In this document: in pieces, positions 20,217 through 57,409 of the stretch
Layout: each line of letters begins with the position of its first letter
Numbering within the stretch: the stretch's first letter is position 1
Origin: Escherichia phage NiC89
Direction: 5' to 3' (one strand)
DNA: 64,000 bases
Sequence record: LC620505.1
Notes under the pieces: model-generated
The model's input: the letters and a program-made list of their open reading frames with translations, nothing else
Database searches by the model: none
What the model was told of the DNA's origin: nothing
Position numbers and translations under genes: made by a program

Positions 20217-20603
20217 TTAGGCCTTAAAAGTTTTTCGCAAAAGTTCAATGATTTCATCTGCATTGTTTTCGTCAACAATGCAGTGAATTTTTGTTACGCC
20301 AGAAACTATACCTTCATTAGCGGATTGAGGCTTTTCTAAAGTTACCTCAGTAAAGTATTTGAATTCTTCAGAGTAAATCTCAAAATACGTCTCAAGTGGG
20401 CCACCCGCCATGTATTCAGTACCATCTTCCATAGTTACACGTACCACACATTCACCAGCACAATCATCACTTTCCATTTCATCTACAACAAAACTAGGTC
20501 CGTGCTTCTCTATTAAATTTAGCATCATTACATTGCAACGGCACTCGTTAGCAAAGTCATTTTTAAATAAAGGGTTAATGATATAAGTTTTTCCAACTTC
20601 CAC
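20217..20603 (-). CDS. hypothetical protein (128 aa, GTG start)
   Basis: ORF track; SD GAGGAAATCAAA before GTG. Confidence 0.45.
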   Translation of the reverse strand: MEVGKTYIINPLFKNDFANECRCNVMMLNLIEKHGPSFVVDEMESDDCAGECVVRVTMEDGTEYMAGGPLETYFEIYSEEFKYFTEVTLEKPQSANEGIVSGVTKIHCIVDENNADEIIELLRKTFKA

Positions 20604-20623
20604 TTTGATTTCCTCATTTTAAC

Positions 20624-20642
20624 GGGGCTATCAAATAGCCCC
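20624..20642 (-). promoter_or_regulatory. intercistronic hairpin
   Basis: GGGGCUA-UUUGA-UAGCCCC on minus strand. Confidence 0.35.
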
Positions 20643-20649
20643 TTGATAA

Positions 20650-20901
20650 TTATTGTTCAATCAGTCCCATGTAAAATTCTGCGTCTTCAGAATCCATGCC
20701 ATCGCAATATTCATTAGCCATAAAGCGGGTAAGGTCTTCAAGAGGACCTTCAATGACAATAGAAAAATTGCAATAATTGGGATCATCATGAATACTTGTG
20801 ATACTAAGTTCAGGATAACGATTACGAATAATCTCTTCAATATATTCAAAATCAACGATGTCAATATCAACTTTAGCCATATTATTTTCCTCTTTAATCA
20901 T
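20650..20901 (-). CDS. small strongly acidic protein (83 aa)
   Basis: Asp/Glu-rich composition; SD AGAGGAAAATAAT; promoter-like element upstream. Confidence 0.5.
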
Positions 20902-20921
20902 CAGCAGTATTGCCGATAGTT

Positions 20922-20952
20922 GTATAGTACCATAAAGCCTTATGTTGTAAAC
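20922..20952 (-). promoter_or_regulatory. early-promoter-like element (conserved long form)
   Basis: GTTTAC 20947-20952 with T/A-rich upstream tract and TGGTACTATAC -10 region; follows the gene 32 terminator. Confidence 0.5.
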
Positions 20953-20975
20953 CGTTTTGTGAAAAAATTTTTGAA

Positions 20976-21002
20976 ATAAAAAAGGGGACCTCTAGGGTCC
21001 CC
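20976..21002 (-). terminator. rho-independent terminator downstream of gene 32
   Basis: GGGGACC-CUAGA-GGUCCCC hairpin followed by U6. Confidence 0.7.
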
Positions 21003-21024
21003 AATCAATTAGTAATATAATCTA

Positions 21025-21930
21025 TTAAAGGTCATTCAAAAGGTCATCCAGGTCCGTGTCATCAGCACTAGATGAACTGCCAGAGCTTGAGCTCATAAAA
21101 TCATCTTCAGTTTTTGTATTGAAGTCATCAACATTGAATGCATCCAAATCATCAGCAACTTTATCAGCTTTCTTAGCAGCAGTTGCAGCGGCACCACCCA
21201 TCACAGCAGTTCCCATAACTTGACTGAACTTAGTGCTCAGTTCTTCAAACGATTTGAATTTATCTTTAGAAGTCATTTCAGAAAGGTCAACCATTTGTTC
21301 GAACAGTTCTTTCTGGAAAGATTCATCGTCAATGTTTGGAATCGCAGATTGATTCAGGAATTTAGATTCGTCGTAGTTACTAAAACCAGAAACTTGTTTA
21401 ACTTTCAGTACAAAGTTAGCACCTTCCCACGGACAAGTTACATCAACCGGAGTTTCACCCATTTCAACATCAACTGCAATCATTGCATTGATTTTATCCC
21501 AGATTTTCTTACCGAAACGGTATTTAAATACTTTACCTTCATTTTCTGGAGCAGCTGGGTCTTTTACTACAAGAATGTTAGCCCAGTAAGAAGTTTTACG
21601 TTTAACAAGACCGTACTCTTTATTGTCAGTGTTGTACAGATCATTTTTACTGATGTACTGACATACTGGACAAGAATCGTAATCACCATGGGTAGATGAA
21701 CATGTTTCAATATACCATTTACCATTTTTCTTGAAACCGTGATTTACAAGAATTGCGAATGGTGCTTGTTCATCATTTTTAGACGGAAGAAAACGAATTA
21801 CTGCTTGACCGTTACCCGCATTATCGAGTTTCAGTTTCCACTCGCCTTTATCTTCAGAAGAAAAACCTTTATTGCCATTCAGTTTAGCCATTTGTGCAGC
21901 AAGTTCAGCAGTAGATTTACGTTTAAACAT
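21025..21930 (-). CDS. 32: single-stranded DNA-binding protein gp32
   Basis: 301 aa, [36 protein letters not shown]... with acidic Ser-rich C-terminal tail; matches T4 gp32. Confidence 0.95.
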
Positions 21931-22005
21931 TTTATTTCCTTTTTAATTTAATTTAATTAACAGTTGGTGCTATGACACTTTACCTCATAGCTGACATAAT
22001 TCGCA
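21931..22005 (-). promoter_or_regulatory. gene 32 translational operator (unstructured UUAAA repeats plus upstream pseudoknot)
   Basis: Minus strand reads ...UGUCAGCUAUGAGGUAAAGUGUCAUAGCACC..AUUAAAUUAAAUUAAAAAGGAAAUAAA AUG, matching the T4 gene 32 autoregulatory leader. Confidence 0.7.
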
Positions 22006-22617
22006 ATACTCTGGGTCTTCGAGAGGTATCCAACCTGAGTTGAAATACTTTACCATCGATTTAGCAGTTGTATCAGTTATATTTATATTACCTTTAACTC
22101 TTCGCCATCCAGGAGTTTTACCGTACAGATTAGAGGATAATAATAACACATAATTCTCGTAAGCAATATGAGATAATTTCCAAGACTCTATATTAGCTCG
22201 TGATGTTTTCCAAGGTCTAAAATCGTCACGGTTCATATAATTAGCCAATCTCATATGCTCTCTAACTTCCGGATCTTTGGCTGGATGAGTTTCACCACTC
22301 ACACCAAATCCACCACCAGCATATACCAGATTAAAATAGTCTGGATTATCTCTGGCATTTACTTCAAGTTGATATTTTCGTTCTGCTTCAATAACATCCA
22401 AGTCATCATCAATTTGAATTATTTTAACGCTCGGTTTTTGAAGCATTAGCGCATTCAAAAATCTTTTTTGTTTACATGAGCTCCAGTATTCCTTTCCGGA
22501 AGAGTCATATATTATTCCGTTCTCAAATGAGCAATTTAATTTACTACCGATATAGTAGTATGGCGGAGTCTTATTTTTGACACGGTCTTCAAATGTAAAC
22601 CAATATACTATATTCAT
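21985..22617 (-). CDS. segG: GIY-YIG homing-endonuclease-like protein (SegG-like)
   Basis: IVYWFTF...YYYIGSK (GIY-x10-YIG) at N-terminus; sits between genes 32 and 59 as T4 segG does. Confidence 0.65.
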   Translation of the reverse strand: MNIVYWFTFEDRVKNKTPPYYYIGSKLNCSFENGIIYDSSGKEYWSSCKQKRFLNALMLQKPSVKIIQIDDDLDVIEAERKYQLEVNARDNPDYFNLVYAGGGFGVSGETHPAKDPEVREHMRLANYMNRDDFRPWKTSRANIESWKLSHIAYENYVLLLSSNLYGKTPGWRRVKGNINITDTTAKSMVKYFNSGWIPLEDPEYCELCQL

Positions 22618-38217: not shown

Positions 38218-38244
38218 CGTTTTGTGAAAAAAAAAAAATTAAAA

Positions 38245-45853: not shown

Positions 45854-46056
45854 TTAATTCATATTACGCTTAATAACTTCAGCAACTTCTAGTAGTTCAT
45901 CTTTAGTTGCAGTGTCGGATTGAATTTTATCTCTAATATCCTTAAAGCGGTTTTAAACTCTTCGGCTTCTCCCATATCGAAAAAGCGTTGGATGATTCTA
46001 TATTCTCGATGAACTGCTTTATCAAAAAGTTCTAAATTTACTTTATATGATTTCAT
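45854..46056 (-). CDS. small ORF between rIIA and 39, apparently split across two frames
   Basis: ATG 46056 with SD GAGGA opens a 55-codon frame ending 45889; a second frame without a start codon (..[16 protein letters not shown]) ends at 45854 just before the rIIA SD; the frames would join if the A4 run at 45951-45954 were A5. Confidence 0.35.
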
Positions 46057-54578: not shown

Positions 54579-55334
54579 TTATCCTCGGATAAGTTTAAAA
54601 ATTGAACAATTTAGCGGGTATCCTCTTTTCAGTTTAAGTTTATCAATAAAAGACAAGTTTTGATACCGCTCTACACCTTGAATAATTTTATCACACATAT
54701 CATATTGCATTTCTGCTTCTGATAACTTTTTCACAATTTTCCAATCCGAACCTTTAAGAAGAACGTTCAGTTTAACAACTTCAGCGCCTTCTGCTATGCG
54801 AGAACCATCAATACGAGCTTTAAGTGCTATAATCGTTAGCTTAATGTCAGAGGTCTGTTTTGATTTAGAAAGCTGAGAAATGTGTTCAATTCGATTTTCA
54901 CGTTTTTTCTGTATAGCTTTAATTTGATTATAAGTCTTTTTGATTTTAGCCCATTTCTTTTCATCTAAATTTAGTTTATGAACTTTTTTCGCAGATGAAC
55001 GGCCAATTCGCAAAGCAAATAAATCACGCTTTTCAATCAACTCTTCTAAAGTATAATCAGAACGAAATGTATTATACTTTTTCTTTACTGCAATAACGTT
55101 CCCTTTAATGTATCCAATGTTATTATCAAAACGTTCTAATGATAATTTCTCTCCTTCAATACGATTATCAAAAGGTTCTCCTGAATAGGCACAAACTTTT
55201 TGATCTAAAATGTTCTTAATGTAATTGAAGTCTAAGTTAAAATCTTTAGAACGTCTTTTTGCAGATGCCTGAGTGTGCTCTAAACGACGTTTAATTTTAC
55301 GAATTTGATTATTAGACATATTATGCAGTTTCAT
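54579..55334 (-). CDS. srd: Srd-like protein (251 aa)
   Basis: Size and position upstream of dda match T4 srd. Confidence 0.5.
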   Translation of the reverse strand: MKLHNMSNNQIRKIKRRLEHTQASAKRRSKDFNLDFNYIKNILDQKVCAYSGEPFDNRIEGEKLSLERFDNNIGYIKGNVIAVKKKYNTFRSDYTLEELIEKRDLFALRIGRSSAKKVHKLNLDEKKWAKIKKTYNQIKAIQKKRENRIEHISQLSKSKQTSDIKLTIIALKARIDGSRIAEGAEVVKLNVLLKGSDWKIVKKLSEAEMQYDMCDKIIQGVERYQNLSFIDKLKLKRGYPLNCSIFKLIRG

Positions 55335-55456: not shown

Positions 55457-56059
55457 TTATAGATTAAATCCTTCAAAATCAAGAGTATAGATAGTGTATG
55501 TTGAATACTTTTTATACTCATATCTATCTGCAATTCTAAATACACTTCCAGCTGGTATCATTACTTCTTGTTCATCTGAAACTAATTCCATATTACGATA
55601 ACGATGACTATCCGGAAACTTAAAGTTTGGATTGTATTCTTTACAGCGTAGAGCTTTTATGGCATACTCCTGGAAATTGAATACCATAGGAGCTTTGAAT
55701 TCAAAAATAACCTGTGTGTTATACTCTAAACCGGAAGCAAAATGTAGAGCTATATTTTTATCATATGAAGCTGATACTACTTTATCAAATGTAATAATAT
55801 CAATTCCTTGATTTAACACCTGCTTAGTCTCAACTGGAACACCTCTCCAAAGAGGTTTATCGTTTGGAACCAAACGAGATTTGATTATTTCATTTAACCA
55901 AGTATGGTCATCTGGCTTATTAGTAATACAATGAATTAAAAGTTCAATTTCAGATAAATTAAACCCTTCAGAAAGTAATTCTTCACGAATAGAAGCACGC
56001 ACCGATGCATCCATTGATTTTATTTTAAAATCTTTTAGTTGCATTACTGAGTATTTCAT
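55457..56059 (-). CDS. modB: ADP-ribosyltransferase (ModB-like)
   Basis: R (LWRGV), S-x-S (SAS) and E-x-E (EQEVMIP) motifs; modA/modB assignment by order only. Confidence 0.6.
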   Translation of the reverse strand: MKYSVMQLKDFKIKSMDASVRASIREELLSEGFNLSEIELLIHCITNKPDDHTWLNEIIKSRLVPNDKPLWRGVPVETKQVLNQGIDIITFDKVVSASYDKNIALHFASGLEYNTQVIFEFKAPMVFNFQEYAIKALRCKEYNPNFKFPDSHRYRNMELVSDEQEVMIPAGSVFRIADRYEYKKYSTYTIYTLDFEGFNL

Positions 56060-56682
56060 TCAACTACCTCAATATCATAAACTTTAAATGTTCCAAATGA
56101 ATCGTGTAATTTTTCTTTTGAAATAGAAGTTATTTTGTACTTTCCAATTGGAATCATCCATTCTTGTTCATGCACAATCATCATTAAGTTATCAGTACGC
56201 TCTGAATCTAATCCATCAGTATCTTCATATGTATACTTAAACTCAGTATTAGGAGAAGAAAGTATAATATCGCTGATATGGTCAGAGTAATTAAAAGCTT
56301 TATCAGTTTTTAAACGAAGTATTGTTTCAGTGAAATATTCAGCATAAGAAAAAGAACACGCTGTATGCAAACTAGTAGTAAATGAATCTACCCTGTTCGT
56401 TGAAAACACTTCTCCAACTTGTAAATCTTTAATGAGTTCTTTTGTTGATTTTGATATACCACGATATAATTGATAAGGCGATTTAGTTAAATGCTTTTTA
56501 ATGATTTTATTCAACTGTCTGTGAAGAGCTTCATTCTTTTTAGCTTCCATACATTGCCAAAGAACAGACTGCTCAAAGTCAGTAAATTTTTCACAAACTT
56601 TTTTTTATACATATCATATTGAAAATCAACGCTTTCAGCTTTTATAGATAACTGTTCAACATCTGCAAGATTAATAATCATG
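56056..56682 (-). CDS. modA: ADP-ribosyltransferase (ModA-like), interrupted by an apparent frameshift in an A8 run
   Basis: Catalytic part 56056..56550 (LYRGI, FTTS, EQEWMIP); upstream out-of-frame segment from ATG 56682 with SD GGAGG; the frames join if the homopolymer at 56599-56606 were A9 or A6. Confidence 0.55.
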
Positions 56683-56707
56683 ATAGCCTCCGTATACTTC
56701 AGAAGCT

Positions 56708-56738
56708 ATCATATCATCGTTAGAAAGGAAAGTAAACA
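56708..56738 (-). promoter_or_regulatory. early-promoter-like element upstream of modA
   Basis: GTTTAC 56733-56738, 18 nt, TATGAT. Confidence 0.45.
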
Positions 56739-56932: not shown

Positions 56933-57409
56933 CTAATTCCTAGCGATAAAAACCAAATTGACGATTAGCTTCAATAATCTTTCTTTCTTCTTCGGACATT
57001 CTCCAACGTAGTCCAACATCAAAAGAGCCCAGACCATCTTAACAAATGCATTTATATCTTTAATATCTTCAATAATGAATGTTTTACTTTTAGAAGATTG
57101 ACTCGCTAATTTAACTTTATCGTCTTCAAACATGTCAAAAAGACCATATTCATGAGCTCTTTTATAGCCTTTAATAGTTAAAGCTTCGGAAGAAGAAAAC
57201 GGTGAATCAGTATTCTGCAAAATATCTTCAGTATGCTTTATAATTAGAATAACATTTTCTGGATATTTTCTTTCTTTTATATCTTTAATTAAAAAATCCG
57301 GATTTTCTGCTAAAGGAATAATTAATGAGCATTTTTTATCAAGTGTATTTACTGATTTACCTTCTTTAGACATAAATTCTATTGAATAATGTTTTGCTAC
57401 TTCAATCAT
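56933..57409 (-). CDS. hypothetical protein (158 aa)
   Basis: ORF track; an alternative short frame overlaps its C-terminus. Confidence 0.45.

Follow-up and report, generated by a model that had tools for sequence, protein, structure and literature searches.

A poly-A tract length change interrupts modB in the deposited genome of the T4-like phage NiC89

Introduction

ModB is an ADP-ribosyltransferase that modifies the ribosomal protein S1, EF-Tu, and trigger factor, and it also RNAylates S1 and L2 (PMC10468400; PMC3014915). The arginine at position 73 is its catalytic residue, and was mutated to inactivate the enzyme; T4 carrying the inactive ModB(R73A,G74A) is viable, with a burst that is 4-fold lower and lysis that occurs approximately 20 min later (PMC10468400). 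When over-expressed, ModB kills E. coli (reviewed in PMC3014915).

Homopolymers of at least six bases are hypermutable in the phages T2, T4, and T6 (Gomez, Barrick & Waters, bioRxiv 10.1101/2025.10.21.683753). The T6 table of that study lists the exact modB tract considered here (NC_054907, 12697-12702, which corresponds to coding positions 76-81 of 624 nt); 1 of 1461 reads was variant for one population, and 0 of 1899 for a second (10.1101/2025.10.21.683753).

Repetitive A tracts may also be read in more than one frame. Heptamers of the type V_VVA_AAG that lack stimulators support a shift of approximately 0.3% in E. coli, which may rise to no more than about 3.7% in a favourable 3' context (PMC4066793). 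In many bacteria, selection against slippery A/T runs begins at a length of approximately nine bases (PMC1088944), and the RNA polymerase of E. coli is poor at slippage, with a preference for poly(T) over poly(A) (PMC6260861).

The DNA analysed here, referred to as the window, is a stretch of 64,000 nt (64 kb) of the phage NiC89, which has a genome of 166,727 bases. The window is that of a T4-like phage (Tequatrovirus), and the closest deposited genome is that of vB_EcoM_G4507 (G4507), with 97.2% identity over 19 kb. A search of the literature found no paper on NiC89.

Identity and neighbourhood of the interrupted gene

The initial annotation had described an interrupted, modA-like gene encoding an enzyme that modifies the host RNA polymerase. 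By orthology and synteny, the interrupted gene of NiC89 is instead the orthologue of modB, and modA is intact directly downstream. The attributed target also belongs to the neighbouring gene, given that the modification of the alpha subunit of the RNA polymerase is the role of ModA, whereas ModB targets S1, EF-Tu, trigger factor, and L2 (PMC10468400, PMC3014915). The downstream gene is as follows:

55457..56059, minus strand: modA, intact, 200 aa, the start codon of which shares bases with the stop codon of modB (ATGA; TGAATGA); it has its own GAGG Shine-Dalgarno (SD) sequence

The gene order, modA.3 - modA.2 - modB - modA - srd - dda.1 - dda, is identical in T4, Sf24, RB18, G4507, and KIT03, and modB has a length of 624 nt (207 aa) in the relatives. 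The two pieces of the NiC89 gene were deposited as consecutive entries, both named "hypothetical protein", that is, BCT70123.1 (56 aa) and BCT70122.1 (164 aa).

The placement in the ModB family was based on PHROGs and on cluster membership. Residues 11-206 of the repaired ModB align with phrog_832, "RNA polymerase ADP-ribosylase" (E = 7e-42), and the 164-aa piece falls within a ModB cluster of 712 members. The family PF26816 (Mod_ADP_RT) has been precomputed for the corresponding ORF of a relative, although neither Pfam-A nor NCBIfam returned a match for the two ORFs, modA, or the repaired ModB, so that PF26816 was evidently either absent or missed. A sequence search for a solved structure of any relative of ModB or ModA found none, and the role of ModB residues 1-43 was judged from the profile and the alignment with the paralogue. 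Overall, the NiC89 gene has the homology, the genomic position, and the R-S-E signature of a T4-type ModB, and does not have the uninterrupted frame. As sequenced, then, NiC89 modB is a pseudogene or a frameshift allele.

A number of other differences from the relatives were observed in the window. The srd gene (54579-55334, minus strand) has an in-frame insertion of 9 nt close to its 5' end, at 55317-55325, which adds three codons (H-N-M) in comparison with T4, G4507, and KIT03; the srd of RB18 is likewise 756 nt long. Between genes 32 and 59, an ORF of 210 aa (21985-22617, minus strand) has an amino acid sequence 100% identical to that of the T4 homing endonuclease SegG, and is absent from this position in G4507 and KIT03. 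This complete identity, in comparison with approximately 91-97% to the relatives in the rest of the region, fits a recent homing event. Judging from the alignment coordinates alone, the td gene appears to be uninterrupted at ~17310/17311, where G4507 is approximately 1 kb longer (20252-21267), with an I-TevI-like homing endonuclease inside its td gene.

Structure of the broken reading frame

The components of the broken gene, which is encoded on the minus strand, are listed below:

56687..56691, minus strand: SD sequence of modB, GGAGG
56681-56679, minus strand: ATG of modB
56511..56681, minus strand: 5' ORF of 56 aa, beginning MIINLADVEQLSIKAESVDFQYDMYKKKFVKNLL; BCT70123.1, in which codons 1-27 are the authentic N-terminus of ModB
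56599..56606, minus strand: A8 homopolymer (T8 on the plus strand), an expansion by two bases of the A6/AAAAAG tract at modB nt 76-81
56598..56604, minus strand: A_AAA_AAG heptamer, in register with the zero frame in which the 5' ORF is read; a -1 shift at this site leads into the ModB frame (...YKKK-VCEKF...)
56056..56604, minus strand: the rest of the ModB frame (residues 26-207 and the stop), recovered by tblastn as an HSP at 56604..56059, frame -2
56056..56550, minus strand: 164-aa ORF, opened by an internal ATG (56550; Met44 of ModB); BCT70122.1, with TTCTTTGGCAATGT in front and no SD sequence
56458..56466, minus strand: codons of Y72-R73-G74, of which R73 is catalytic
56158..56169, minus strand: codons of E171-Q-E173-W, the E-x-E motif of the R-S-E class of ADP-ribosyltransferases, aligned with the ModA motif EQEVMIP

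Most of what the initial annotation had reported on the architecture of this gene was borne out by the sequence. The T8/A8 run lies exactly at 56599-56606, and the portion downstream from the internal ATG at 56550 encodes the catalytic residues R73, S99-F-T-T-S103, and E171-Q-E173. A GGAGG sequence and an ATG do open a different frame upstream, with a correction of one base in the position of the ATG, which begins at 56681 rather than 56682. The two frames were said to join only if the run were A6 or A9, and this holds true, since the removal of two A's (A6) produces a single, uninterrupted ORF of 624 nt (207 aa), and A9 is likewise in frame.

In the 56-aa ORF, codon 27 is followed by 29 out-of-frame codons, and then by a TGA at 56511-56513. 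The remainder of the ModB frame (56056..56604) encodes amino acids that are 100% identical to those of G4507 ModB, and the serine/threonine-rich strand S99-F-T-T-S103 is encoded within the 164-aa ORF.

Long homopolymers are scarce in the window as a whole, with only four A/T runs of at least seven bases, and two of at least eight, of which the modB A8 is inside a gene. The A8 is thus not something that an A-rich genome would provide by chance. An A12 at 38227-38238 exceeds all other homopolymers of the window in length; it appears, from its surroundings, to be intergenic, and G4507, T4, and KIT03 have three bases fewer at this point.

Predicted control of the translation start

Two further elements were predicted around the start of modB:

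56679..56713, minus strand: RNA hairpin with a 14-bp core, which buries the SD sequence and the ATG of modB
56708..56736, minus strand: early-promoter-like site, TTTACT-17-TATGAT, with an extended TG; a consensus match only

The 51-nt fold of 56670-56720 adds approximately five pairs to this core, and has a dG of -20.8 kcal/mol (z = -6.8), with none of 200 shuffles being as stable. The alignment covers the hairpin from 56701 downstream, and over this portion T4, Sf24, and RB18 show no variation. The -10 element of the predicted promoter (TG-TATGAT) is also the 5' arm of the hairpin. Given this arrangement, transcripts initiated at the predicted early promoter would have an open ribosome-binding site, while in the read-through transcripts this site would be closed.

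The tract in related phages

In T4, the tract reads AAAAAG, and in Sf24 and RB18 it reads AAAAAA, while that of NiC89 reads AAAAAAAA. This increase of two bases is the sole length difference in the region between NiC89 and these three phages. A comparison with close relatives had been proposed in the initial annotation, and its outcome is a six-base, in-frame tract in the relatives and a tract two bases longer in NiC89.

The repaired ORF has 0 non-synonymous and 6 synonymous differences from that of G4507, 1 and 7, respectively, from that of Sf24, and 4 and 10 from that of T4. The absence of non-synonymous differences among the six that separate NiC89 from G4507 indicates that modB was under purifying selection up to very recently. 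Either the lesion arose very recently, or it is not real.

None of the 501 phage records recovered with a 161-nt query reached an identity of at least 99% over its length. Among the 100 phage matches listed (the 40 best and 60 spread evenly over the 501), 98 have the allele length that corresponds to six bases, the two exceptions being a15 and CJY920, and the tract also has six bases in all three IMG/VR contigs and all nine metagenome contigs that have these flanks. A change in the length of the A-run was found in one of the 60 evenly sampled records. The A8 was not found in any other genome examined. When the assembly index was searched for exact copies of the 56-aa and 164-aa products, no match was returned.

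The same run is altered in phage a15 (OQ067373.1, 710-1332), in which modB is also split, with the CDSs WBF82409.1 and WBF82408.1. In this phage, the shift leads into the wrong frame that is also read in NiC89 and ends at the corresponding TGA, and the ORF from the internal ATG has been annotated here as well. The allele of a15 differs from that of NiC89 in being an A5 (-1) rather than an A8 (+2), in its genomic background, and in the lack of the full heptamer, of which only an A_AAG tetramer is found.

Other lesions of modB lie outside the run. The record of CJY920, which is labelled "UNVERIFIED", has a +1 insertion in modB approximately 40 nt downstream of the run. When the out-of-frame 56-aa product was used as the query, three further, independently broken modB alleles were recovered from assemblies; the Logan contig SRR33881069 (175-800; P0003) has a +2 change in modB approximately 40 nt downstream of the run, and in the 96-aa products P0004 and P0005, modB is shifted near codons 80 and 73. 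Broken modB alleles are thus recurrent but rare, with the A-run being affected at least twice.

Origin of the length change

The interruption of modB is an ordinary slippage mutation or a sequencing miscall at a known hypermutable tract, rather than designed recoding. Runs of A are classic slippage hot spots in T-even replication, and there is an even chance that NiC89 modB carries a genuine poly-A length change at codons 26-27, which would make it a null or strongly hypomorphic allele. In this process, slippage of the DNA polymerase would expand the tract from A6 to A8, probably one base at a time, by way of A7. The frame would be shifted after Lys27, and translation would end 29 codons further on, leaving the downstream modA, which retains its own ribosome-binding site, unharmed. 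This reading is supported by the A5 of a15 at the same tract, by the entry for the tract in the T6 table (10.1101/2025.10.21.683753), and by the viability of T4 with an inactive ModB (PMC10468400). We infer that the A8 is phage DNA, rather than a base-calling error, and the same applies to the stepwise origin of the tract and to the leakage described below.

A sequencing or assembly miscall is a serious alternative, with a probability that falls somewhat short of even. In this case, the true tract would be in frame (A6 or A9), modB would be intact, and the A8 would be an error of homopolymer length. When the ORFs of G4507 were compared with the window in a protein-level scan, three annotated genes were found to be frame-broken, that is, modB and the following two:

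45857-46056, minus strand: rIIA.1 (67 aa in the relatives), with a lesion at ~45955, where A5 becomes A4 (TTTAAAAACCGC to TTTAAAACCGC)
56933-57409, minus strand: modA.3, with a lesion at 57025-57029 (~57026), where a single A of GCTCATTTTG (CATTTT) has been lost, which is not a homopolymer change

The rIIA.1 lesion is private, and the best among 497 phage matches differs from the window in the one-base gap alone. The modA.3 lesion, which replaces the last 29 residues and lengthens the ORF to 158 aa, is also private, with 23 phage records that are identical except for the gap. The presence of three private, frame-breaking indels of 1-2 nt within 64 kb, in contexts that are otherwise identical to those of the relatives, is the pattern of an indel-prone assembly. 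Two of these lesions are located at homopolymers (modB and rIIA.1), and the third (modA.3) is beside a run of four T's. In the same scan, KIT03 had one truly broken gene (pseT), and T4 had none besides the intron-split nrdB and the alt.-1/alt.-2 remnants, so that these other deposited genomes have zero to one such lesion over the same region.

The state of the gene itself may be read in the same way, as a modB that has no other lesion fits an artefact equally well, and ModB matters for burst size (PMC10468400). As the loss of ModB costs T4 a 4-fold reduction in burst and a delay in lysis of approximately 20 min, a null modB allele should be selected against (PMC10468400).

With a true tract of A9, each of the three lesions would amount to the deletion of one base, which is the typical error of long-read or flow-chemistry sequencing. 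This version requires a real expansion of three bases, however, and none of the relatives examined shows one, the 15 listed members of the 712-member ModB cluster among them. An overcall of two bases from A6, by contrast, would be an atypical sequencing error, unusual on any platform, which argues against a miscall.

All three NiC89 frameshifts affect small, dispensable early genes, and the essential genes, which make up approximately 30% of the window, are free of lesions. This counts against a miscall, but the avoidance of essential genes by three lesions has P ~0.3 when ~30% of the window is essential, and does not discriminate. The pseT gene of KIT03 (NC_054923.1, 13674-14583), which encodes a polynucleotide kinase, has been divided by a frameshift, with annotated products of 30 aa and 253 aa. 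As this case illustrates, it is not uncommon for a deposited Tequatrovirus genome to have a single broken early gene.

Internal initiation

A further possibility is that the 164-aa product is made from Met44 and is active as a truncated ADP-ribosyltransferase, which would render the frameshift functionally silent. The 164-aa ORF does retain R73, the serine/threonine-rich strand, and E171-x-E173, and it has been annotated in NiC89, a15, and the Logan contig by the depositors or gene callers. There is no SD sequence upstream of 56550, however, and the domain begins before residue 44, given that the match to phrog_832 starts at residue 11, and that to the paralogue ModA at residue 28. Reinitiation at the internal ATG following termination was also considered, and was rejected, because the 56-aa ORF stops 37 nt past the ATG at 56550, which makes for poor coupling. 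An active, truncated enzyme is thus very improbable, and the internal-start product is unlikely to matter.

Recoding and residual expression

The least tenable of the alternatives, to which hardly any credence can be given, is that the A8 evolved as a programmed recoding site, through which the toxic ModB would be made only at a low dose, by -1 frameshifting or transcriptional slippage. The codons of the zero frame over the run are TAT AAA AAA AAG TTT, which places the heptamer exactly in the A_AAA_AAG register, with a -1 shift reaching the ModB frame, as expected of a programmed site. The lethality of over-expressed ModB in E. coli (PMC3014915) and the tight structural control already exerted on the modB ribosome-binding site by the predicted hairpin would also be compatible with a need for low dosage.

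The stimulatory elements and the conservation that accompany programmed -1 frameshifting are lacking, however. The predicted structure downstream of the heptamer is no better than that of shuffled sequences (z = +0.6 for 59 nt and z = -0.8 for 99 nt), and no GGAGG- or AGGGAG-like SD element was found 10-14 nt upstream. The A8 is private to NiC89, and the two-frame arrangement is absent from the relatives, which have a single, in-frame ORF with the six-base tract. Unstimulated heptamers yield approximately 0.3%, with a maximum of approximately 3.7% (PMC4066793). As for transcriptional slippage, the run has eight bases, in comparison with the nine or more that are typical of slippage-prone runs (PMC1088944), and the E. 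coli RNA polymerase slips poorly, favouring poly(T) over poly(A) (PMC6260861). The suggestion of the initial annotation that expression may depend on slippage is not supported as a designed feature of the gene; its other two readings, an assembly error and a natural inactivation, correspond to the two alternatives weighed above.

If the A8 is a genuine slippage mutation, a residual expression of ModB may nevertheless be expected. A few ribosomes would slip by -1 at A_AAA_AAG, producing a full-length ModB with one extra lysine, and, on the basis of the published heptamer yields, a leakage of approximately 0.3-4% into the ModB frame is plausible. An occasional slip of the RNA polymerase (A8 to A9 in the mRNA) could likewise restore ModB. 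This low-level rescue would be adventitious, rather than evolved.

Significance

The immediate value of these findings is for annotation, in that BCT70123.1 and BCT70122.1 are the two halves of modB. The phage NiC89 should be regarded either as a T4-like phage that may be naturally deficient in modB, or low in it, or as one whose genome is in need of indel correction. If the A8 is real, NiC89, together with a15, would provide natural controls for ModB-dependent ADP-ribosylation and RNAylation, and would contribute one data point on the recently claimed role of phage homopolymer tracts as contingency loci. The knowledge of ModB itself, or of recoding, is unchanged by the NiC89 case.

Comparison with known systems

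The closest counterpart of the NiC89 gene is the modB of T4 (NP_049636.1). In both phages, the gene is flanked by modA.2 and modA, and its end overlaps the start of modA (ATGA); the NiC89 gene also has 207 aa after repair. They share the R73/G74 residues and the E-x-E motif, an identical SD sequence, and a hairpin that is identical where aligned (56701 downstream). They differ in that the NiC89 frame is broken past codon 27 by the addition of two bases, whereas the T4 tract, AAAAAG, is interrupted, and is thus less slippery.

The -1 sites of dnaX, IS911, and the IS3 family have the same heptamer, the same register, and the same host tRNA-Lys, and in these systems, as in NiC89, the -1 frame leads to a functional product. 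These sites have an upstream SD-like element and a downstream hairpin or pseudoknot, however, and reach tens of per cent, whereas the NiC89 site lacks these elements, and is not conserved.

In the known cases of rescue by transcriptional slippage, such as the tssM gene of Citrobacter rodentium (PMC4256274) and the A8 of apoB (cited in PMC1088944), an added A partly corrects a frameshift in an A-run, as may occur in NiC89. The NiC89 run, with eight bases, is nevertheless below the nine-base threshold inferred for many bacteria, and the E. coli polymerase prefers poly(T).

The final comparison is with the phage contingency loci, such as T2 agt and the A6 of T4 rIIA (10.1101/2025.10.21.683753). 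It is improbable, although somewhat less so than the truncated enzyme or programmed recoding, that the tract at modB codons 26-27 is a working contingency locus of the Tequatrovirus, with ON states of A6 and A9 and OFF states of A5, A7, and A8 in some of the progeny. Such a locus would represent a hedge between the benefit of ModB for burst size and its potential harm, whether where host defences respond to ADP-ribosylation or RNAylation or in those hosts to which it is toxic, and the A8 state, with its A_AAA_AAG heptamer, would provide a third, "low" level of expression through -1 frameshifting. The length variants on which this would be based (A5, A8, and 1 of 1461 T6 reads) may each be a sequencing error, and their frequency is low. 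The NiC89 A8 also differs from the described loci in being two deletion steps from the ON state, and one step from A9. As in those loci, the modB tract is a homopolymer of at least six bases within a non-essential ORF (A6 in most relatives, A8 in NiC89), in which slippage would produce frameshifted OFF alleles. The lengths deposited for the tract are A5 in a15, A6 in the majority, and A8 in NiC89.
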